Shown here: positions 7,111 through 54,892 of the stretch, one piece after another
How the letters are laid out: each line of letters starts with the position of its first letter
How positions within the stretch are numbered: position 1 is the stretch's first letter
From: Eubacteriales bacterium
GTDB lineage: Bacteria; Bacillota; Clostridia; Oscillospirales; CAG-382
Assembly (NCBI GenBank): GCA_028702135.1
Contig: JAQVPJ010000001.1
Span: 94,334-158,333 of the forward strand
DNA length: 64,000 nucleotides
Direction of reading: 5' to 3'
Made by a program: the position numbers and the translations under genes
Notes under the pieces: model-generated
Told to the model about the DNA's origin: nothing
The model's database searches: none
What the model saw: only the letters and a program-made list of their open reading frames with translations

Positions 7111-7905
7111 TTATTTTTTCAAATAGTGCTTCTTCCTTTTTGGTTTGTATACATCCTCAAACAAAGGCACTCTCTCGCCACATATTCTCTTTGCGATATT
7201 AAAAAAAGCTGCCTCGTATCTTTTTATTTTTTTATCGTATTGACCCGTAAATGCTAAGTATCCGGATTCCTGATCGCAGGGAAGACTGTCTTCAAACGGG
7301 ACTACTCCCAATAGACTTATCGCCGAGCGATTTATAATATCGAGTATTGACGGGAGCTTGTTTTTTTGCGCATATTCTGCGTGGTATCCGTTTACAACAA
7401 GCCTTAGATTCTTAAAGCCCATTTCCGTGAGTTTTAACGCTGTTTTCTCCGACGCTCTTATCGCTGTCGACTGATGCAGAGTTACCACTATCGCATCGTC
7501 TGCTGCTGCCGCAAAGGATAGATAATACGGCGATGGGTCGGCGGAGCTGTCAATAAGGCAATAATCGAACCTTTTCCTTAACTGTGCGAACAGCTCAATA
7601 AAGCGTCCGGTCGGAATCTCTTCTTTGTTGTAGTTAAGCGGTGCGGGCATAAAATACAGACCTTCTTCGCCCGTTATCGCACTTTCGGGCTCGCACCTTC
7701 CGAGAAGAACGTCAAAACAGTTGAACACGGTATCGTTTTCATAACCCAGAACAATATCCATACAACGCATTCCGAAATCCCCGTCAATAATAAGCACCCG
7801 CTTTTCCATCGCTTTCAGGGCAGAAGCGATATTAGCGGTCACCGTTGTCTTTCCAACGCCGCCTTTGAAGCCTGTTATAAATATTACTCTTCCGGAATTG
7901 CTCAA
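7111..7905 (-). CDS. MinD/ParA-family P-loop ATPase
   Basis: Deviant Walker A GFKGGVGKTT and the LIIDGD motif. Track ORF starts at TTG 7920. I prefer the TTG at 7905 because GGAGG at 7914-7918 lies 8 nt upstream. Confidence 0.8.
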   Translation of the reverse strand: MSNSGRVIFITGFKGGVGKTTVTANIASALKAMEKRVLIIDGDFGMRCMDIVLGYENDTVFNCFDVLLGRCEPESAITGEEGLYFMPAPLNYNKEEIPTGRFIELFAQLRKRFDYCLIDSSADPSPYYLSFAAAADDAIVVTLHQSTAIRASEKTALKLTEMGFKNLRLVVNGYHAEYAQKNKLPSILDIINRSAISLLGVVPFEDSLPCDQESGYLAFTGQYDKKIKRYEAAFFNIAKRICGERVPLFEDVYKPKRKKHYLKK

Positions 7906-7943
7906 GAGGCAGTCCTCCAAAGTACAATTATAGATACTAAATT

Positions 7944-11274: not shown

Positions 11275-12768
11275 ATGAACTATATCAGCACAAGAGGCGG
11301 AGTAAAAGGGAAAAAAACAAGTGCATATGTAATAAAGCAGGGGCTTGCAGATGACGGGGGACTTTATGTTCCGGAACAAATACCCGCACTCTCCGAGGTT
11401 GAAATGTGCGCACTTTCAAAAATGAATTATATACAAAAAGCGTCGTATATCCTCGGCTTGTTCCTTACGGATTACACCGAAGAGGAACTGAACTCCGCTG
11501 CGGCAGCCGCATACGGAAGCCGCAAATTTCCTTCTTTGCCGGTCGGACTCTCGCAGGTAAACGGCGACTTCATACTCGAGCTCTGGCACGGGCCTACAAG
11601 CGCATTTAAGGATATGGCACTGCAGATAATGCCGCACCTTTTGTCCCTTGCTCTAAAAAAGACCGGGGAGGATAAAAACGCTCTGATCCTTGTGGCAACC
11701 TCCGGCGACACCGGAAAAGCCGCTCTTGAAGGTTATGCCGATGCCGACAGAGTGAGCATACAGGTCTTTTATCCAATAGAAGGTGTCAGCGGCATCCAAA
11801 AAAAGCAAATGGCATGCCAGCGCGGTAAAAATGTGATGGTTACGGCGATAAAAGGGAACTTTGACGATGCTCAAAGCGGCGTTAAGGAAATTTTCGCAGA
11901 TAGGGACACCGAGGCTCTTCTAAGCGAAAAAGGTTTGTTCCTATCGAGTGCAAATTCGATTAATTGGGGCAGACTCGCTCCGCAAATCGTTTATTATATT
12001 TCAGCCTATTGCGAACTTATGAGGCTTAAAAGAATAAAATACGGTGATTTAGTCAACGTAACCGTGCCTACAGGTAATTTCGGAAATATACTTGCCTGCT
12101 ATATTGCAAAAAAAATGGGAGTTCCGATAGGAAAGATAATTTGTGCGTCCAACTCCAACAATGTTCTGACCGACTTCTTAAATACAGGCGTTTATGACAA
12201 GCGGCGCACCTTTTACACAACAATATCCCCGTCGATGGATATTCTAATATCGAGCAACCTTGAACGCCTTTTGTTTATGACTGCAGGTGCAAAACGCTGT
12301 TCTTCATATATGAAAAACCTGTCTGAGAAAGGCTTTTTTGAGGTTGATAATGATGTTATTGAGGTGATCCGCGCGGATATTTGCGGTTTTTACTGTGGTG
12401 AGGAAAACACAAAAAGCACGATAGCATCTTACTTCAATAAATATAACTACCTTCCCGACACGCATACCGCAGTAGCGCTTTTCTGCGCCGGGGAATATAA
12501 GAAAAAGAGCGGCGACGACTCCGTTATGCTCATCGCTTCTACCGCGTCGCCGTATAAGTTCGCACCTGCGGTGCTGACCTCTCTCGGAGCTGCGGGACAG
12601 GAGAACGATTTTGAAGCGATAAGAAAGCTGAACGAAATAAGCGGTATAAAAATACCCACACGTCTTGCCGCGCTTGAGAGTAAAAAGCCGCGTTTTAATA
12701 CGGTAATAGAAAAAAGCGACATGAAGCGCGAGGTACTTCGTTTCGCATCTGAACAAAGTAAGAGTTGA
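11275..12768 (+). CDS. thrC: threonine synthase (long form)
   Basis: 497 aa. Contains YISTRG, DGGLYVP, and the PLP lysine context FKD. Confidence 0.9.
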   Translation: MNYISTRGGVKGKKTSAYVIKQGLADDGGLYVPEQIPALSEVEMCALSKMNYIQKASYILGLFLTDYTEEELNSAAAAAYGSRKFPSLPVGLSQVNGDFILELWHGPTSAFKDMALQIMPHLLSLALKKTGEDKNALILVATSGDTGKAALEGYADADRVSIQVFYPIEGVSGIQKKQMACQRGKNVMVTAIKGNFDDAQSGVKEIFADRDTEALLSEKGLFLSSANSINWGRLAPQIVYYISAYCELMRLKRIKYGDLVNVTVPTGNFGNILACYIAKKMGVPIGKIICASNSNNVLTDFLNTGVYDKRRTFYTTISPSMDILISSNLERLLFMTAGAKRCSSYMKNLSEKGFFEVDNDVIEVIRADICGFYCGEENTKSTIASYFNKYNYLPDTHTAVALFCAGEYKKKSGDDSVMLIASTASPYKFAPAVLTSLGAAGQENDFEAIRKLNEISGIKIPTRLAALESKKPRFNTVIEKSDMKREVLRFASEQSKS

Positions 12769-14214: not shown

Positions 14215-14745
14215 ATGGGACTTTCATGGAGTGCAATGCGTAAATTATTAGAACAAGATTATATTTGTGATTCCCTTAAAGGCAGAATACAATATTTTGC
14301 CACCCAGTATAGAAAGTCACATGACCAAGAAGGTCGCGTGGCTGTGCGTTTAGATGGCAAGGAGATTCTTAAATCCTGCTTTTATGATTGGGATATAAAG
14401 CGTCACAAAGCATGGAACGAAATAGATATAGACAAGAGCAGGAAAACAAGTTATTCAGAATCAGCTGACCAGATGGAGCTTGAAGCATTAAATAAGGGTG
14501 GATTTGACCAATATAGTTTTTACAACGCTTTTCATGTCTACTTTAACAGCAGTATTGACAGCAGTTTAATATCTGCAGACCCGGTTGTCAGACTTTTTGC
14601 AATCATGGACAAACGCGTCGGGAAAAGACGATTGCATCAGTTGCTTGCCGACATGGACTCTCAACCTGAATGGCTGCAGATATTTTACAGACTGCGCTTA
14701 GAATCAGATGGAATTATTAAAATACATACAAAAAGAGCTAATTGA
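14215..14745 (+). CDS. conserved hypothetical cytoplasmic protein
   Basis: 176 aa, with RBS AGGAGGAAG upstream. I can assign no domain with confidence. Confidence 0.5.
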   Translation: MGLSWSAMRKLLEQDYICDSLKGRIQYFATQYRKSHDQEGRVAVRLDGKEILKSCFYDWDIKRHKAWNEIDIDKSRKTSYSESADQMELEALNKGGFDQYSFYNAFHVYFNSSIDSSLISADPVVRLFAIMDKRVGKRRLHQLLADMDSQPEWLQIFYRLRLESDGIIKIHTKRAN

Positions 14746-14976
14746 TTAGAAAAAAACAGTTAGCTCTTTATTATAAAGAATTCAAATGTTGACATAACGT
14801 TGCCTCAAGACACTTTTAAGCTTAAGACTCAGTGCTTGTATGGGTTTACAGCTTTTCATTTTTTATTCCCACTCGCCTGATAAGAATGTGTTTTAAACGA
14901 CTTTTTAAATTTGTTATACATATTCTATTGATTGTTTTGATTATCTGCAATTCCTCAATATGTGTAAGATTTTTTT

Positions 14977-15006
14977 CATGCTGTTATCAACCTTGATAAC
15001 AGCATG
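14977..15006. repeat. 30-bp perfect palindrome
   Basis: CATGCTGTTATCAAccTTGATAACAGCATG, with 14-bp arms, a T7 run on its 5' side and ATTATTG on its 3' side. Confidence 0.9.
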
Positions 15007-15097
15007 ATTATTGTTAATGGATAACAATTTGGGTTTTTTACCTGATAAGTATTATACATAAAATTACTTAATCCAAGACGAATACGGAAACAAATTT

Positions 15098-16084
15098 TTA
15101 TCTATTTGGTTGTCTTCTTTCTGGGTGTATTAACCAAAAAATCAAAGCTGTCACACATCCTGACGTTATGATTATCAATATGTTAATCGGAGCAACAATG
15201 ATTCCCGGTATACTTTCAAATAGGAATCCGGTGCCGAAACTATACAAATGCCCATGGAGAAGGATCATCTCACCAACATACATAAGGGTGGTCATTATTG
15301 CCGATACAATTGCCGAAATTCCTACTGTGACAAATTTACGCTTGCCGAGAAGGAAGGAACCGACATATATTCCAACCGTTACACCTAAAAGAATGAAAAA
15401 TATGGCCATAAGCGTAGCGGACAAGGGTGATACCTGAATGTTTCCGTCGCGCCAAAAAGCAGTGAAGCAAGCAAGAATGCACAATCCGAGGAAGACGAGA
15501 GATGATATCGATTGCAAAACGAGCGCTTTCAAACGCTTTTTATCACCGTTTCGTATCATCTGAGCAAATCCGTACAGACAGTTCAATACCGAAAGGATAA
15601 GGACAATAGAAATAATGTAGAAATGCAATTTAAAAGCAGGGTTATAGTTGCCCATTAATATATCAACTGGCGTTTGTGTCTTGTATGTAGTAACAGTTTT
15701 ACCCCATCCTTCGGGGGGAATATAACACATATACATTTGCCAATCTTCAAGTTTTGTAACCGTTTCCGCTGTTGTAACCACCACTTTTTTTTCAAACAGT
15801 GTTTCGAGAGCAAAGAAGGTACTGACGGCTAATGCCGATCCGCCGATTAATGCAAAACGCTTGAACAGTTTCATGCATAAGGGCAAGACTAATACGCCGA
15901 CAAGCAGCGCAACGGCAATCGGTGTATATGGGATGATGTACTTCGGGTAATTCTCTTTCATAACCGTACCGTCTGAAATCATATCCCAAACGACTCTCGT
16001 TCCCATATACAGCGGATAAAACGAAGCAATGAGGACGCCGTGGCATGTGAATAGATAATACCTGATAAAGCGCTTGTTTTTCAT
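15098..16084 (-). CDS. polytopic membrane protein of unknown function; last gene of the BlaI/BlaR1-like operon
   Basis: 328 aa, about 8 TM helices. It begins 12 nt after the M56 gene stop. Confidence 0.6.
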   Translation of the reverse strand: MKNKRFIRYYLFTCHGVLIASFYPLYMGTRVVWDMISDGTVMKENYPKYIIPYTPIAVALLVGVLVLPLCMKLFKRFALIGGSALAVSTFFALETLFEKKVVVTTAETVTKLEDWQMYMCYIPPEGWGKTVTTYKTQTPVDILMGNYNPAFKLHFYIISIVLILSVLNCLYGFAQMIRNGDKKRLKALVLQSISSLVFLGLCILACFTAFWRDGNIQVSPLSATLMAIFFILLGVTVGIYVGSFLLGKRKFVTVGISAIVSAIMTTLMYVGEMILLHGHLYSFGTGFLFESIPGIIVAPINILIIITSGCVTALIFWLIHPERRQPNR

Positions 16085-17434: not shown

Positions 17435-17651
17435 TAGGTTTTAAAATAAAGAGGCGAGAAATATACTACGCTACTCTACTTTATGCATATATCTGTTCCG
17501 TATTGGCGATTTCTCTTCCCCGTTCAGCTATTGTCACAAACCGTTGTGGTTAAAATGTATGATAATGTTTACGGAACACGATTCTAAAAAAGGGCGACAA
17601 TATCTATGATGTGATGATAAGAGTAAACAGTAATTAAAGTTAATAAGTAAT

Positions 17652-17698
17652 TATAAACACTAAAGGACGGGTTTGATGACCATCCTTTAGTGTTTATA
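17652..17698. repeat. inverted repeat or hairpin, 16-bp perfect arms with a 15-nt loop
   Basis: TATAAACACTAAAGGA-cgggtttgatgacca-TCCTTTAGTGTTTATA. Confidence 0.9.
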
Positions 17699-17724
17699 CA
17701 AATAGATATGGAGGAGTTAAAGCA

Positions 17725-17830
17725 CTGTGTGAAAGTAATACGCATCTTCAACGGTATGTACGCCCGTGATCTATCCCGAAAGGTAAAAGCCGCTAAACGA
17801 CAGCTTGCTGAAAAAGCAGACTATGCCGAT
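17725..17830 (+). pseudogene. short fragment resembling the E-helix region of a large serine recombinase
   Basis: Part of track ORF 17690..18004. The segment IRIFNGMYARDLSRKVKAAKRQLAEKADY resembles the xxYARDxSxKxxxA motif of resolvase-type recombinases. No catalytic domain is present. Confidence 0.35.
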
Positions 17831-17871
17831 CAACAGCGAAGTAATGCAGGCAATCACCATTATTTGGCGGT

Positions 17872-18138
17872 TTATAGGATTTTGAGTAAAATATCAATAA
17901 TAAGAAAAACAGTTATAGCTATACTCAAAATATCAAAATGGAGATTGTTAATGCTCTTTGCTTTTTTGTCTTCTATTACTCCTGATTTAACCAGTGCAAT
18001 ATAACAGCCAAATAGTATTAACAGCGCAAAAAATATATTTAACCATGCAAAATCCTTAATAACAATCCATACTGCTGTTACTAAATATGTGATAATGAAT
18101 GTTAGTCTCACAACAGGATTCTTATTCAAAAAAATCAT
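17872..18138 (-). CDS. small 2-3 TM membrane protein, candidate immunity protein of the decayed toxin cassette
   Basis: 88 aa. RBS AGGTGA; the start lies 8 nt after the toxin-frame stop. Confidence 0.5.
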   Translation of the reverse strand: MIFLNKNPVVRLTFIITYLVTAVWIVIKDFAWLNIFFALLILFGCYIALVKSGVIEDKKAKSINNLHFDILSIAITVFLIIDILLKIL

Positions 18139-18146
18139 AAAATCAC

Positions 18147-18730
18147 CTAAAATCTTATATATCCGCTTTTACCATCACGATCTAAACAGTCAATGATCCA
18201 TGCAATACCATAACCAATTGAGAAATTGAGTACATTCCCAACCCAAGTTTGTATTCGTGCTAAAGTAAAAGCTCTCGTGGCCGCATTGGCAGCTTTCCCC
18301 ATAATTTTGTATAAAATTCTGTCCATAGAATTGAAAATCAGTTTGGATATTCCCTTTATTGCTTTTTCATATAATTCTTTAAACCATCGGGAAGTTTTTG
18401 CCCAAGTTACTAATTTCGTTGCTTTGAAAGCAGTAAAGATATACGGTAAAAAACTGTTATAAAGAAATCAAGCGCAACGCCTGACCAAAATGTACTAATG
18501 CTAATTGCCCAAAGTCCTGAAAGATCAATATTCATAACTGGATTGTTTACACAATACGCAAATAAATTTGAACCCAACAGTTCACCTTGAGCAAGCATTA
18601 AAACACTTGCATCATCCGCATTAATAAAGCGACCTATTTCCGGATCATAATATCTCTATTGTAACGAATAGAAGCCCGTCTCTACATCACAATAATACAT
18701 ACGATAACGGTAGGGGTTAAATTTACCGAC
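18147..18730 (-). pseudogene. orphan Rhs/YD-type core-end plus C-terminal toxin cassette, disrupted
   Basis: My reverse-strand translation reads GKFNPYRYRMYYCDVETGFYSLQ*RYYDPEIGRFINADD...NLFAYCVNNPVMNIDLSGL, the Rhs core-end DPxGL-type motif. There is an in-frame TAG at 18656-18658. The frame switches near 18410-18465 into ...WFKELYEKAIKGISKLIFNSMDRILYK...DRDGKSGYIRF*. Confidence 0.7.
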
Positions 18731-18751
18731 AGTCTTTGCAAGGGTTTTAGA

Positions 18752-18870
18752 GGTTGAAAGTAAATTTTTTCATACCGCAAATGAACATACTTTTACACGA
18801 ATATTATAAATTATTTTACATATATTGTCAAGCTGAATAATTCCTGTTGTTTTTGTAATATGTTACAATT
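18752..18870. repeat. copy A of a 119-bp dispersed promoter/leader repeat
   Basis: Ungapped manual alignment with 46024-46142 gives 98/119 identical positions. Confidence 0.85.
18803..18831 (-). promoter_or_regulatory. consensus sigma-A promoter inside repeat copy A
   Basis: On the reverse strand: TTGACA (18831-18826), 17 nt, TATAAT (18808-18803). Confidence 0.65.
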
Positions 18871-18926
18871 TTTCAGAATAGGTTATAACCAAACCGTTAT
18901 GTTGTGCTGAAAAAAGCAAAAAACAC

Positions 18927-18955
18927 TTGACAATTTATACAAATGTCATTATAAT
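18927..18955 (+). promoter_or_regulatory. consensus sigma-A promoter driving the long leader of the fusion-gene operon
   Basis: TTGACA 18927-18932, 17-nt spacer, TATAAT 18950-18955. Confidence 0.7.
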
Positions 18956-18961
18956 CGAACT

Positions 18962-19300
18962 ATCTTAAAAAAAGCATTGAAGGGGAATAAGCATTTGCAG
19001 TTTTGCGCTTTAAGAGAGTCGCCGGTCGGTGCGAGGCGATACGCAGGCATTTCGCGAGCTCGCCCCGGAGCTGTCCGCTGAACACAAGAATCGCATTTTG
19101 TTATGTGATTTGTTGCAAGTAGGCGAGAACGGGTTTCTCACCGTTATCAAAGAGGCGATGTTGACTGACATTGTAACATATGATAATACGACGATACCTT
19201 TTACGGCTCATATTATGCTTAGCAACTTTAAGTATATTTGAACCGGTTTTTTATACTTAATTCAAATTCCCGCTTTCGGTGGTTTTCACCCTCAAGGAAA
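18962..19300 (+). ncRNA. T-box-like 5' leader with a non-canonical 3' part
   Basis: AGAGA at 19013-19017. Helix GUCGCC/GGCGAU encloses GGUCGGUGCGA, which carries the distal-loop GGUGNRA motif. GAA-CAC-A at 19080-19086. AGUAGG at 19118-19123. F-box CCGUUA at 19141-19146. No GGGUGGNACCGCG and no GC-rich terminator were found. Confidence 0.5.
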
Positions 19301-19314
19301 GGTTGGTTATATTT

Positions 19315-21855
19315 ATGAAAATTGCTTTTTCCACATTGGCGTGTCCGGATTTCAGCTTTCCGGAGATATACTCAATGGCGACAGACCTCGGTTTTGACGG
19401 CATTGAGGTCAGAGGCCTGGGCCTTGATATTTTTGACGGAAGGACGCTCCCGTTCTCTGAAAATCAACTACCGCAAACAGTAAAGAAGCTGAAATCCCTG
19501 AATCTTGAGATATCCTGCCTTTCCTCCGGATGCTGCTTGAAATATGCAGATAAGGCGGAAACGAACATTTCCGAAATAAAGAAGTATATAAAGCTTGCAG
19601 GCGTGCTTGGAACTAAGTATATAAGGATTCTCGGCGACCTTAATCCCGCGCCTTCCGATGATGAACAGCCGGTGGACGATGATGTCGTTTATTCACAGCT
19701 CTCGGAGCTTATACCATTTGCGGAACAGAATAATGTAACCCTGCTTGTAGAAACGAACGGGGTTTACAGCGATACGGGACGCCTCAAGGAACTGCTTGAC
19801 CGTCTTAAAAGCGATTATGTCGGCGCGCTCTGGGATGTTCACCATCCTTACAGGTATAAAAACGAAACTCCCGAAAAAACTGTTCAGAATCTCGGTATGT
19901 ATATACGTTATGTGCATGTAAAAGACAGTGTTGTGGTTGACGGTAAGGTAAAATACCGCCTTATGGGCGAGGGCGACCTGCCTGTTTCCGAAATGATTGC
20001 AGCTTTGGCTTCAATTAATTATGTCGGCTATTTGTCGCTCGAATGGGTTAAAAGATGGGCTCCAGATCTTGAGGACGCCGGAATCGTTTTCCCACATTAT
20101 GTAAACTTTATGTCCAAATACACCGGCAAAGGACAATATTCGGGGACTCTCATAAGCAATATGAGGGGCGACGGAAAATATATATGGGAAAAGAACCTGC
20201 TTATCGACCTCACATTTCCTCAGGTACTTGACCGGGTATGCGAGGCTTTTCCGAATCAATATGCTTTCAGATATACCACCTGCGACTACACCCGTACTTA
20301 TGTACAGTTCCGCGACGATGTGGACCGCTTCGCACGCGCTTTGATTTCCATCGGTGTAAAAAGAGGGGATCATGTGGCAATCTGGGCGACAAACGTACCC
20401 GAATGGTTCATAACCTTTTGGGCGACTACAAAGATCGGTGCGGTTTTGGTTACGGTCAACACCGCTTATAAAATTTACGAAGCGGAATACCTTTTGCGCC
20501 AGTCCGATACCCATACCCTCGTTATGATAGACGGTTATAAGGACAGCGATTATGTTTCTATTATTAAAGAACTCTGCCCTGAGCTTGAAAATACAGAGCC
20601 GGGAAAACCTCTGTATTCAAAGCGTTTACCGTTTCTGCGCAATATAATTACCGTAACCAGCAAGCAAAAAGGATGCTTAACCTGGGATGAGGCGATGGAA
20701 TATGCCGAAAAAACCCCGATTGAGGAGGTTCACCGCAGGGCTGCTTCCATAGGTAAATTCGATGTCTGCAATATGCAGTATACCTCCGGAACTACCGGAT
20801 TTCCGAAGGGTGTTATGCTCACGCATTACAATGTAGTAAACAACGGCAAATCCATAGGCGATGGTATGGATTTAAGCACTGCCGACAGAATGATGATTCA
20901 GGTGCCGATGTTCCATTGCTTTGGAATGGTGCTTTCCATGACGGCGTGTATGACACACGGTACGACTATGTCGCCAATACCGTATTTCAGAACTAAGGAT
21001 TCGCTCGAATGTATAAACAAGGAAAAGATAACTGCGTTCAACGGTGTTCCAACAATGTTTATCGCAATGATGGAGCATGAGGATTTTGAAAAGACAGATT
21101 TTTCTCACATAAGGACCGGCATAATGGCAGGCTCTCCCTGCCCCGTCAAGGTAATGCAGGATGTTGTCGATAAGATGAATATGACTGAAATCACTATAGT
21201 TTACGGACAGACCGAATCCTCTCCCGGTGATACTATGAGCACAACTACCGACAGCGTAGAGGTTCGGGTAAACACAGTAGGAAAAGCGATGTTCGGGGTG
21301 GAGTGCAGGATAGTCGATCCCGAAACGGGGAAGGTTCTGCCCGACAACACAGACGGCGAGCTTGTTGCAAGAGGATATAATATTATGAAAGGCTATTATA
21401 AAATGCCCCAGGCAACGGCAAACGCAATCGATGCCGATGGCTGGCTCCACACCGGGGATCTTGCGCGCAGGGACGAAAACGGTTATTATAAGATTACCGG
21501 CAGGATAAAGGATATGATAATCCGCGGAGGCGAGAACATTTATCCAAAGGAGATAGAGGATTTTATATACACGCATCCAAAGGTAAGAGATGTTCAGGTT
21601 ATAGGCGTTCCCGACAAACAATACGGCGAGGAGATTATGGCCTGTGTCATTCTGAGGGAAGGACAGACGATGACAGAGGACGAACTCAAGGATTATGTCC
21701 GCACTCATATGGCAAAGCATAAAACTCCGCGTTATGTTGATTTTGTAGCCGAGTTCCCCATGAATGCGGCGGGTAAAATACTGAAGTATAAAATGCGTGA
21801 AAACGCCGTTGAAAAGTTAGGTTTGCAGACGGAGAGCAAAATAGTTACCGCTTAG
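19315..21855 (+). CDS. fusion protein: N-terminal sugar-phosphate isomerase/epimerase-type TIM barrel, C-terminal AMP-forming acyl-CoA ligase
   Basis: Track ORF starts at GTG 19279; I prefer ATG 19315 (MKIAFSTLACPDF). TIM-barrel motifs: LVETN, WDVHH, VHVKD, SLEW. Ligase motifs: YTSGTTGFPKGV, GWLHTGD, RGGENIYPKEIE, GKILK. Confidence 0.8.
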   Translation: MKIAFSTLACPDFSFPEIYSMATDLGFDGIEVRGLGLDIFDGRTLPFSENQLPQTVKKLKSLNLEISCLSSGCCLKYADKAETNISEIKKYIKLAGVLGTKYIRILGDLNPAPSDDEQPVDDDVVYSQLSELIPFAEQNNVTLLVETNGVYSDTGRLKELLDRLKSDYVGALWDVHHPYRYKNETPEKTVQNLGMYIRYVHVKDSVVVDGKVKYRLMGEGDLPVSEMIAALASINYVGYLSLEWVKRWAPDLEDAGIVFPHYVNFMSKYTGKGQYSGTLISNMRGDGKYIWEKNLLIDLTFPQVLDRVCEAFPNQYAFRYTTCDYTRTYVQFRDDVDRFARALISIGVKRGDHVAIWATNVPEWFITFWATTKIGAVLVTVNTAYKIYEAEYLLRQSDTHTLVMIDGYKDSDYVSIIKELCPELENTEPGKPLYSKRLPFLRNIITVTSKQKGCLTWDEAMEYAEKTPIEEVHRRAASIGKFDVCNMQYTSGTTGFPKGVMLTHYNVVNNGKSIGDGMDLSTADRMMIQVPMFHCFGMVLSMTACMTHGTTMSPIPYFRTKDSLECINKEKITAFNGVPTMFIAMMEHEDFEKTDFSHIRTGIMAGSPCPVKVMQDVVDKMNMTEITIVYGQTESSPGDTMSTTTDSVEVRVNTVGKAMFGVECRIVDPETGKVLPDNTDGELVARGYNIMKGYYKMPQATANAIDADGWLHTGDLARRDENGYYKITGRIKDMIIRGGENIYPKEIEDFIYTHPKVRDVQVIGVPDKQYGEEIMACVILREGQTMTEDELKDYVRTHMAKHKTPRYVDFVAEFPMNAAGKILKYKMRENAVEKLGLQTESKIVTA

Positions 21856-36016: not shown

Positions 36017-37303
36017 TCATCCCCTCTGATTGAGTTGGTTCATAACGAGCCCCGTTTTAAGTTTCGGATAAAAGTATGTACTCTTCTGCGGCATCTTATC
36101 GCCTGCAAGCGATACATCCTTTATCTCGTTTATTTGTGTCGGATTGATTATAAAGGCAAGCGAACACTCGCCCTTTCTCACTCGCTCGACCGCCTCTTCC
36201 GATGAACGCGTATAACGCAGATTTATCTGATTCGCCATATTCTGTTTGTCTATACCAAGCCCATTTTCAAGTATAAGCGAATGTAAAACCGTAACATCAA
36301 GGCTGCTGTAGGCTTTTGACCTGCTCTCAAAAACCATATCATCCACCTGTGGCTTTGCACTCAGCAGCGTAAAGCCCTCTCCGCCGTCATACATCGCAAA
36401 GACGTGCTTGTTTCTGAATTTCTCAAGAATCTCTCCGGCCTTTGATACATCGGGATACTCCTGTATATCAAAATACCCGGAAATTTTTTCGAGAAGTTCC
36501 TGTTTGTCTATGTCAAGTCCCGTTACCAGTCTGTGAGTGGGAAAAATAACCAGACCTTCGTCATCCATATCGACGAGAGTCATCATCATGCAATCAGCGG
36601 TAGTTCCGCTCAGCTTTTTTTGATTTTCAAGATGCTTTTTAAAGTTGAGCGCAGTCTCGTATCTGTGATGGCCGTCGGCGATAAAAAGCTGTTTGTCGGA
36701 AAACGCTCTTATCAGCGTATCAAGCTCGTTCTCATCCTCAATCTTCCATAACAGGTGGGTAACTCCCTCTTCATCCGTGAATTCCTTTTCGGGTTTTGAT
36801 TCGACAGCTTTTAAAAGCACGCGTTTAATTGTTCCCGCCGGATCGAGATAAAGCGAATACACCGATGAAAAGTTGCAATATGTGGCGTTCATCAGATTGA
36901 ATCTGTCTGTTTTTGCTTTAGACAGCGTTTCCTCATGCGGGAGTACGATTTTTTCGGAAAAATCATAGAGCTTTACAAGGCAGATAAGTCCTGTGACGGT
37001 ATATTCCCTGCCTTTCACGGAGAACTTCTCCCTATACACGAACATTCCCTCTTTACTGTCACGTCCGAGTATGCCGGTTTGTATCCATTCAGACAGTTTT
37101 TTCCCTGCTTCGTCATACCTGTCGCACGAATCCGGAAAAGTATCGACGGGCAGCTCTAAATTAACTAAATTATAGGGGCTTCTCTTAATGAGTCTTTCCC
37201 TTTCCTCTCCCGAAATTATATCATAGGGAGGGCATACGTTATCCTCAAGCCTTCCGGCCTTTTCAGTATATAAAAGCGCTTTGATTTTCCTGACTTCTGC
37301 CAT
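36017..37303 (-). CDS. DUF1015 domain protein
   Basis: 428 aa. Contains LFIADGHHRYETAL. It ends 9 nt before the valS start. Confidence 0.8.
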   Translation of the reverse strand: MAEVRKIKALLYTEKAGRLEDNVCPPYDIISGEERERLIKRSPYNLVNLELPVDTFPDSCDRYDEAGKKLSEWIQTGILGRDSKEGMFVYREKFSVKGREYTVTGLICLVKLYDFSEKIVLPHEETLSKAKTDRFNLMNATYCNFSSVYSLYLDPAGTIKRVLLKAVESKPEKEFTDEEGVTHLLWKIEDENELDTLIRAFSDKQLFIADGHHRYETALNFKKHLENQKKLSGTTADCMMMTLVDMDDEGLVIFPTHRLVTGLDIDKQELLEKISGYFDIQEYPDVSKAGEILEKFRNKHVFAMYDGGEGFTLLSAKPQVDDMVFESRSKAYSSLDVTVLHSLILENGLGIDKQNMANQINLRYTRSSEEAVERVRKGECSLAFIINPTQINEIKDVSLAGDKMPQKSTYFYPKLKTGLVMNQLNQRG

Positions 37304-52542: not shown

Positions 52543-53997
52543 TTACTTGAACTTTTCTTGTGAAAACTTTGTAAAGCCGGGTAATTTATCGGAAATAGGT
52601 CTGTCGATAACACCATTTTCCGCAATCGCTCCGATAATCAGATTTGTTGAAATATCCGCCACCGTGCTCATCGCGCTTCCGTACAGCGCCGCCATGTCAA
52701 AATGCTTTGTGTCCATAACCGTTTCGAGCAGAACAGTCGAGGTGTTGTTCTGAAAAAACAGATTTACATACTTGTCATACACCGCTTTTTTTATAGCTCC
52801 GCCCGAAGCGGCACAGAAGGCATTGAGCATAGTGATGCTTTTCTGCGGGTCGGAAACATTAGAGGGTATTGAAATCGCATATGCGTTCACATCGATAAAG
52901 GAACAGAATTTTTTCTGTTGAACGTTTAGCTTGGGAAGGGGAAGCAAGCCCCATTCCCTTTGGTATCTCGTGTTTTCCGAATTCGGTGTCGGTTCCATCG
53001 CCTCGGTCAATTCCGCAGAAAATTGCAGTGTTCCGATAAAAAAGGCGAGCCTGCCCTCTAAAAACGCTTTTTTTACATTTGTTCCGGCAAGGGGATAAAG
53101 ACTTTTGCTTGTATATATACTCTCAAGATTATCAAGCTTTTCCTTCACTCCTGTAAGATCATCCGTCAGCTTAACCTCGTTTTTATAGGTGTCTTTAAAC
53201 ATCGGAATTCCGCCGCTCTCCCACATAGCCAGCGGCAGCTCCCTGTCGTTGTCATATGCACCGAATCCGAAAATATCTGTCGCAAGGTCCGGAGAGCCTT
53301 TATTCATCACTTTTTCGGCTATCGTTTCCGAATAAAAAAGAAACTTCTCCCATGTCCATTCTCCCGTAGCTGCAAGCATTGCGGGATCGGTAAGACCTCG
53401 ATCTGTTATAAGCTTTTTATCATAAAAAACCACCCAGCTCTGCTCGTAATACTGTGTCGTGCTGTCGTAAAGCATATAAAGAGAATTGTTGGTTGTTATG
53501 CTTTTTGCGCTCTCTGTATCAATATACTCGGCGTTTATATCAAAATGCGGCGAGGATAATAGGTTTAATAAAAATCCCTGATCCGCAAGCGAGACGGTCG
53601 TGCTTCCGGGGAAGCAGAGCATATCGGCGAATTGCATTCCGGCTGTTTCTGCGTCTTTCATATATTCCGATATTTTACCCGCAGAAACGCTTTTTGTGTC
53701 AATGTTTATGCCGTATTTATTTATTATCAGTCTGTTCCTTTCGTAAACCGCCGTCTTTACAATGCTTTCGCTGTCCTCCTCGGAAGAAAACAGCGGCTTT
53801 CTATCCTCCGGAACGGCTATAATAAAGTCCGTCCCTTCATACGCGGGCGATTCCGGCAGTTCTGTAACCCGCTCCTCCTCGATGTTCTTTTCCGAAGTCT
53901 CCGCATTTGAAATCCCGGAAACATTCTCGCAGGAAACAAGCATGGTGAGCAGTATTGCACCGCAAAGTAAAGTAACTGTTATTTTTTTATAACTCAT
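52543..53997 (-). CDS. ABC-transporter extracellular solute-binding lipoprotein (sugar type)
   Basis: Track ORF starts at 54075 by reading through the parS sites. The ATG at 53997 gives MSYKKITVTLLCGAILLTMLVSC, a lipobox signal. Confidence 0.7.
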   Translation of the reverse strand: MSYKKITVTLLCGAILLTMLVSCENVSGISNAETSEKNIEEERVTELPESPAYEGTDFIIAVPEDRKPLFSSEEDSESIVKTAVYERNRLIINKYGINIDTKSVSAGKISEYMKDAETAGMQFADMLCFPGSTTVSLADQGFLLNLLSSPHFDINAEYIDTESAKSITTNNSLYMLYDSTTQYYEQSWVVFYDKKLITDRGLTDPAMLAATGEWTWEKFLFYSETIAEKVMNKGSPDLATDIFGFGAYDNDRELPLAMWESGGIPMFKDTYKNEVKLTDDLTGVKEKLDNLESIYTSKSLYPLAGTNVKKAFLEGRLAFFIGTLQFSAELTEAMEPTPNSENTRYQREWGLLPLPKLNVQQKKFCSFIDVNAYAISIPSNVSDPQKSITMLNAFCAASGGAIKKAVYDKYVNLFFQNNTSTVLLETVMDTKHFDMAALYGSAMSTVADISTNLIIGAIAENGVIDRPISDKLPGFTKFSQEKFK

Positions 53998-54019
53998 ACG
54001 ACCGACCTCCCGTCGCGGA

Positions 54020-54035
54020 TGTTTCACGTGAAACA
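54020..54035. other. parS site (ParB/Spo0J binding site), perfect consensus
   Basis: TGTTTCACGTGAAACA, a 16-bp perfect palindrome matching the Firmicute parS consensus TGTTNCACGTGAAACA. Confidence 0.85.
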
Positions 54036-54058
54036 ACAACACTAATGTTGTGATAAAA

Positions 54059-54074
54059 TGTTTCACGTGAAACA
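54059..54074. other. parS site, second copy
   Basis: TGTTTCACGTGAAACA; the palindrome extends to 18 bp (ATGTTTCACGTGAAACAT, 54058-54075). Confidence 0.85.
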
Positions 54075-54229
54075 TTCAGTAATGCTGTCTTATGATGGTC
54101 ATTTTAAACGCTTTATTGCAATTATTCAATAATAAAATGTAACAATTACCTTTTGCAGAGATTTCTTCTTGCGTTTTACTTGACGCGATGTTATAATTGC
54201 CTGATTAAATAAAAAAAGGTGATTTCCGA

Positions 54230-54892
54230 ATGCCCTGTCCTGTTTGTACCGATACTGTCAAATATATATACGTTGCTTTCCTTACCACGCCGACAAAAAT
54301 CGGTAAGGCTATACGGAAGTTTACAAAAAACAAATACAGCCATGTCGTTCTGTCATTTAACGAGGACCTCAGAACTATGTATTCCTTTGCCCGTTACAAT
54401 GTTAACAGCCCGTTAGTCGCCGGATTTGTTGAGGAATCTGCGTTGAGGTATTATTATTTTAAGCAAAAGGATATCCCTGTAAAAATATGTAAAATCCCGC
54501 TTACTCCGCAAAAGCACACGGAAGTTCTCGATTATATCTCGTCTGTCAGGAATAATTCGGAACAATATGTATACAATTTATTCGCTCTCGCCGCCGCTTC
54601 GATACATAAAAAGGTACAGATAGAAAAATCCTACACCTGCCTTGAGTTCGTTTACAGCGTGCTTTACAGCTGCAAAATCGAAACAAGCATTGATATAAAC
54701 AGCTATTATTCAATCGTCGATTTGGAAAATGCTCTTTCAAAGTATGTCGTATACGAGGGAAATTTCCTTACTCTGACGTCTTCTCTGAACTGGGGAAACG
54801 ATTTGTTCTATTACAGAAAGAGCGTGAGAAAGGTAATAACCGGTTCGTTAAGACAATGTGGCACGCTGATAAAGCGTTCATTTATAAGTTGA
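54230..54892 (+). CDS. hypothetical protein, possibly a permuted papain-like (YiiX/YaeF-type) hydrolase
   Basis: 220 aa. His context KYSHVVLSF precedes Cys context SYTCLEFV, the order seen in permuted NlpC/P60-like enzymes. Confidence 0.4.
   Translation: MPCPVCTDTVKYIYVAFLTTPTKIGKAIRKFTKNKYSHVVLSFNEDLRTMYSFARYNVNSPLVAGFVEESALRYYYFKQKDIPVKICKIPLTPQKHTEVLDYISSVRNNSEQYVYNLFALAAASIHKKVQIEKSYTCLEFVYSVLYSCKIETSIDINSYYSIVDLENALSKYVVYEGNFLTLTSSLNWGNDLFYYRKSVRKVITGSLRQCGTLIKRSFIS

Follow-up and report, generated by a model that had tools for sequence, protein, structure and literature searches.

Two identical 16-bp palindromes, centred 39 bp apart upstream of a solute-binding lipoprotein gene in a Clostridia bacterium, are very probably (roughly 0.88 by our own estimate) chromosomal parS sites, the sequences onto which the CTP-dependent clamp ParB/Spo0J would be loaded, as judged from their sequence and setting. 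Because they lie close to the origin and nothing else resembling parS occurs in about 85 kb there, the pair probably serves as the principal, or at any rate the nearest, centromere and site of SMC loading on the rpmH-side arm of the chromosome. It adds one more case to a well-known kind of element, and is notable only as a conserved tight doublet away from parAB.

Two perfect parS sites share one intergenic region

The window, by which we mean the whole 64-kb stretch of DNA that was analysed (64,000 nucleotides), contains TGTTTCACGTGAAACA twice, at 54020-54035 (parS-1) and at 54059-54074 (parS-2), with 39 bp from centre to centre, in an intergenic gap of 232 bp flanked by divergent genes. Each copy is a perfect 16-bp palindrome that agrees at 16 of 16 positions with the parS consensus, TGTTNCACGTGAAACA / TGTTTCACGTGAAACA, as given in PMC7022226 and PMC10197239; no strand is assigned to either site or to the spacer between them. 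The earlier note on this DNA had described two perfect parS sites 39 bp apart in one intergenic region, exactly matching the Firmicutes ParB/Spo0J consensus, and both the coordinates and the match are confirmed here. It had also called the second copy palindromic over 18 bp, which is right as to the symmetry and wrong as to the length: the parS-2 palindrome reaches 20 bp (54057-54076, AATGTTTCACGTGAAACATT). The exact direct repeat shared by the two sites is 17 bp long (ATGTTTCACGTGAAACA), and the 23-bp spacer (54036-54058, ACAACACTAATGTTGTGATAAAA), whose sequence relatives do not share, contains a short inverted repeat, ACAACA/TGTTGT. By eye, the sequences that follow each copy (CACTAATGTTGTG and CAGTAATGCTGTC) are weakly alike, a likeness that hints at an old tandem duplication.

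Given the base composition of the window, 2.3e-5 perfect copies are expected by chance in 64 kb, in keeping with the note's remark that a perfect 16-mer is not expected at random in a stretch of this length. A search for the 16-mer with mismatches, which the note had proposed for the whole genome, returned just these two sites in the window, with no further parS even at three mismatches or fewer. Solely as an estimate of background parS density, we used proS-anchored family-level relatives (the best 80 listed), whose nearest ProRS sequences, 69-82% identical, belong to Acutalibacteraceae, Ruminococcus and Oscillospiraceae MAGs. None of these 80 relatives shares gene order with the window, and the 1.31 Mb that they provide contains two perfect parS, both in a single locus (L038). 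The Noc-binding site, whose palindrome we take to be ATTTCCCGGGAAAT, was considered as an alternative identity for the two sites and rejected: the central CACGTG core and the TGTTTC arms match parS and not the Noc-binding site.

The pair precedes a lipoprotein gene on an ordinary chromosome

The nearer site, parS-1, lies 22 nt upstream of the start codon of a gene on the minus strand (52543-53997) for a solute-binding lipoprotein of 484 aa, recognised by the Pfam family SBP_bac_1, by gene calls and by its signal peptide. The gene's real start codon is ATG 53997: GGAGG stands upstream of it, translation from it gives MSYKKITVTLLCGAILLTMLVSC, which has a lipoprotein signal, and the resulting 484-aa product is the one called in public assemblies. 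The longest open reading frame (52543-54075, minus strand) instead begins at an ATG inside parS-2, crosses both sites and runs to 510 aa, starting MFHVKHF. This N-terminal extension is spurious and is created by the parS pair, as had been proposed from the sequence along with the placement of the pair just upstream of the lipoprotein gene. The pair therefore sits in the upstream or leader region of that gene, after which come pgk and then tpi on its strand. A consensus scan found a promoter-like sequence facing the lipoprotein gene (TTGAAT-17-TAAAAT, 54101-54129, minus strand), a weak call at two sites against 1.2 expected; if it is real, both parS would be part of the 5' leader, roughly from +20 to +75.

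Across the gap, a divergent gene on the plus strand (54230-54892) encodes a conserved hypothetical protein of 220 aa, which served as our synteny anchor. This protein has no Pfam or NCBIfam match; its 50 homologues share 64 invariant alignment columns, including H38 and C137, and it is conserved across the clade and beyond. Elsewhere in the window are aspS, hisS, valS, pcrA, spoIIE, ackA, tpi, pgk, proS, a partial GerA gene and a gene for a dockerin protein, and the window is ordinary chromosome of a spore-forming Clostridia bacterium. Exact look-ups of its proteins placed the locus in MAGs and metagenome assemblies of fermenter and digester origin, and nowhere else. For the DNA to the left of the window, the protein of 332-1942 was looked up and gave no public record.

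The pair lies near the replication origin

The earlier note had suggested that the window is origin-proximal, and three observations bear this out: firstly, the species' dnaA (P0055, 15029-13689) shares a contig with the parS pair (36134-36188 of DHQS01000055.1, from the MAG GCA_002411095.1), about 21 kb from it, with rpmH-rnpA-yidD-yidC-jag in between; secondly, the dnaA-dnaN spacer holds two DnaA boxes; thirdly, GC skew flips sign at dnaA. In window coordinates dnaA would start at about 75 kb, some 11 kb past the right end, and the order rightward from the window's last complete gene is GerA, M23 peptidase, nrdR, several small genes, Band_7, jag, yidC, yidD and rnpA. A search at three mismatches or fewer found no parS between the window and yidD (L217, L219 and L220), and none in the 10 kb beyond dnaA, a stretch with dnaN, recF, remA, gyrB and gyrA. 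Over some 85 kb spanning oriC there is thus no parS besides the pair.

The distance from dnaA to the block that carries the pair differs between lineages, from 10-11 kb in L215 and L216 through 21 kb in the source species to 32 kb in Firmicutes bacterium HGW-Firmicutes-21. In this last genome (L234 and L213, PGZT01000001.1) the whole block, with the M23 peptidase gene at one end and the SBP gene at the other, is found on the dnaN side of the origin, 32 kb from dnaA, and in the source species the same block is on the rpmH side of oriC. The arrangement in HGW-Firmicutes-21 looks like an inversion across oriC, one that kept the block origin-proximal and its genes co-directional with replication.

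The doublet is conserved in related lineages

Homologues of the 220-aa protein led us to syntenic loci in five other lineages, in which that protein is 62-79% identical. Four of the five have a parS pair, with no or one mismatch per site, just upstream of the same lipoprotein gene, and the fifth has one site; conservation of the pairing in relatives, which had been put forward as a check, is therefore found. The four pairs are GGTTTCACGTGAAACA and TGTTTCACGTGGAACA at a spacing of 61 bp (L211), two copies of TGTTTCATGTGAAACA at 38 bp (HGW-Firmicutes-21, L213), a perfect site and AGTTTCACGTGAAACA at 44 bp (Clostridiales bacterium GWF2_36_10, L215 and L228), and a perfect site and TGTTTCACGTGGAACA at 37 bp (L216); the single site (L225) is again TGTTTCACGTGGAACA. 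The orthologous gene-proximal site is present in L211, L213, L215 and L216, and relatives keep the distal site too. Overall, 154 of 160 parS positions (96%) agree with the consensus; identity between the spacers of different lineages is 0.45, as against 0.45 for shuffled spacers. The distal variant TGTTTCACGTGGAACA, with G at position 12, is common to L211, L216 and L225, which suggests that the pair is ancestral and was not remade in each lineage. With the source species included, the spacings are 37, 38, 39, 44 and 61 bp, or 3.5 to 5.8 helical turns, and this variability (37-61 bp) argues for two independent sites, additive or redundant, over a phased cooperative unit.

A metagenome scan with the alignment of the 220-aa protein added one informative locus, L228, of the same lineage as L215. 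Two more remote homologues, P0014 (43% identity with the 220-aa protein) and P0070 (75% identity with the DnaA of L216, the query), were dropped as not syntenic or without parS within 10 kb. In HGW-Firmicutes-21 both copies (L213:8299 and 8337) read CATGTG in place of CACGTG, an asymmetric change that has one and the same orientation in each; it may stem from concerted evolution, from parallel mutation of the CpG type or from a shifted ParB preference.

The gap itself has been remodelled. Between the parS pair and the 220-aa gene, three relatives have a gene of about 500 aa with an RNB domain (RNase II/R-like; L211:8302-9849, L213:8356-9852 and L216:8311-9915); two short open reading frames stand there in L215, and from the corresponding interval of the source species (window 54076-54229) the RNB gene is entirely absent. 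The source species has lost the RNB gene yet kept both parS. A tight parS doublet can thus outlast gene loss and move to the other chromosome arm, and its persistence through both fits selection on parS position near the origin.

Within the source species, both copies are found in 8 of the 10 contigs listed. In one of the others (L008) a stretch of N covers the first copy. The second, L005 (Logan assembly of SRR8925756; L005:3434-3695), has a clean 39-bp deletion that leaves one parS, and is elsewhere 100% identical to the window over 13.4 kb. The 17-bp repeats may have recombined, or the palindrome, which is a difficult one, may have given rise to an artefact; taken at face value, the single copy in L005 indicates that two copies may not be required.

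Partition genes in the window and its relatives

A tblastn search of the window with Spo0J gave no match, and the Soj query gave just a weak one at 7549-7893, as expected from the earlier report of neither parB nor soj in this stretch. The same report had mentioned a MinD/ParA-like gene that might be unrelated to the pair. That gene (7111-7920, minus strand) encodes a MinD-like P-loop ATPase that scores 159.8 bits to TIGR01968, below the equivalog cut-off of 212.9; being MinD-like and not Soj, it is unrelated to the parS pair, and it is probably an orphan paralogue of the MinD/ParA family. It adjoins hisS-aspS, and minC and minE were not seen nearby. Beyond the window, we found no ParB or Soj in 521 kb of partly redundant clade loci covering the origin region, and no ParB in the readable ~85 kb of the source genome. 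parAB adjoins jag in many Firmicutes; in the clade studied here it is not beside jag. By itself, conservation of the sites implies that a cognate reader should exist. In gut Oscillospirales, ParABS has been demonstrated, and clusters of parS mark the apex of the origin structures seen by Hi-C (PMC10197239).

The family-level relative L038, an Oscillospiraceae MAG, has soj-spo0J, a second ParB-family gene and two single perfect parS, at 11601 and 15852. Its proS directly adjoins this partition cluster (ParB-like gene, spo0J and soj), with genes at 14256-15479 (plus strand) and 17620-19335 (minus strand), and the linkage of proS to par genes may be older than the clade studied.

A probable ParB-loading doublet and the alternatives to it

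From established ParB biology (PMC7022226, PMC5815017 and PMC4536313) we infer the following course of events. Each palindrome would bind one ParB dimer; CTP binding would then close ParB as a clamp, and the clamp would slide onto flanking DNA; ParA would act on the resulting ParB complex, which would also recruit SMC-ScpAB. ParB is accordingly only predicted to be present, to bind the pair and to load SMC there, and the close pair may form an especially strong point of nucleation and SMC loading. The doublet is most simply read as redundancy. For the uncultured Clostridia lineage concerned, known only from fragmented MAGs, the pair offers a reliable marker of the origin; the understanding of parS is unchanged by it, model organisms needing just one site.

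A role beyond segregation, in which the pair is a centromere and ParB at both sites also blocks or represses the lipoprotein gene and perhaps the downstream pgk-tpi, appears unlikely, although there is precedent in the intergenic parS3 and parS4 of P. aeruginosa, which repress PA0011 and PA0013 (PMC7022226). In its favour, 22 nt separate parS-1 from the ATG, L211, L213 and L216 have their gene-proximal site comparably near the called SBP start, and the upstream promoter-like site would place both parS in the 5' leader; however, that promoter is a weak consensus match (2 sites versus 1.2 expected), the sites in L215 lie more than 100 bp from the gene start, and in L225 the site is still present although the gene that follows has no SBP family on record. 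A bolder form, to which we would give quite low odds, holds that the doublet itself is under selection, as the sole origin-side centromere far from parAB and as a ParB roadblock in the lipoprotein-pgk-tpi leader; if true, a transport and glycolysis unit would have its expression tied to how far ParB occupies the sites. At its most extreme, this idea becomes that of a clade without canonical ParB, in which another protein would read the sites.

Three further readings were weighed. Two palindromes between divergent genes could be a cooperative operator pair for a dedicated transcription factor that controls both genes, a very improbable explanation: a 16/16 parS match would have to arise twice by coincidence, no regulator gene is adjacent, the spacing ranges from 37 to 61 bp without helical phasing where a fixed one would be expected, and in relatives the sites are downstream of the RNB gene and not in a divergent promoter region. 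Just as improbable is an RNA element, in which the identical palindromes would pair in the 5' leader as a long hairpin affecting mRNA stability or translation. The leader does fold at -38.4 kcal/mol (z-score -5.4 against shuffles), but any two identical palindromes would pair in this way, so that the fold is no independent evidence; an RNA role leaves the identity to parS unexplained, an Rfam scan of the window has no matches, and the relatives show no compensatory changes that break parS, all variants being within one mismatch of it. Finally, we attach next to no weight to a leftover phage or plasmid centromere. Such elements often have close parS arrays, and perfect parS commonly stand in close pairs or arrays on viral contigs (at least 120 loci, spacings 23-55 bp); against this origin, the neighbours here are housekeeping genes (pgk, tpi, proS and ackA), synteny is kept across five other lineages, and neither mobile-element genes nor a composition anomaly occurs at the site.

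Comparison with known parS systems

The parS of B. subtilis are dispersed single sites, and its parAB is beside the origin. The arrangement here is unlike it in having one tight intergenic doublet as the sole site in ~85 kb and no parAB near the origin. Of the 10 B. subtilis sites, with the consensus TGTTNCACGTGAAACA, 8 are in the origin domain (PMC7022226 Table 1); the present sites resemble those of B. subtilis and other Firmicutes in their identical 16 bp, their closeness to the origin and the same expected role, ParB nucleation and SMC loading (PMC7022226 and PMC4536313). In Caulobacter crescentus, the strong parS sites 3 and 4 lie within a 260-bp segment ~8 kb from ori and form the core centromere (PMC5815017). 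Here too, two sites are close together near the origin, but C. crescentus, an alphaproteobacterium, has five further weaker sites and parAB nearby, and no extra sites were seen around our pair. Pseudomonas aeruginosa parS1-4 are likewise origin-proximal, and any single one of them is reported to suffice for segregation (PMC4368675); they serve as a model of redundancy and also of a regulatory side effect that may occur here, with four sites there as opposed to two here.

Phage phi29 has five parS sites and depends on Spo0J for its entrapment in the spore (PMC2731898). Phages of this family carry the same host consensus, and metagenomic phi29-like contigs have pairs 34 bp apart; unlike these sites, which belong to a phage genome exploiting host ParB, our pair sits on a chromosome and keeps its synteny from species to species. 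In IMG/VR contigs (L091-L210), perfect parS commonly come in close pairs and arrays, at no fewer than 120 loci (for example L091:6545-6594, 9223 and 9574). Among the matches listed, 71 of 120 loci have three to five perfect sites, spacings cluster at 24, 26, 30, 34 and 42 bp, and a Spo0J-like gene is absent from the examined stretch in 119 of 120. The L091 family, with contigs of 12-14 kb, is phi29-like, with genes for the capsid protein Phi29_MCP and the packaging ATPase Gp16. Such viral arrays agree with what is known of phi29, which uses the host's Spo0J to become entrapped in the spore (PMC2731898), and extend it to metagenomic relatives.
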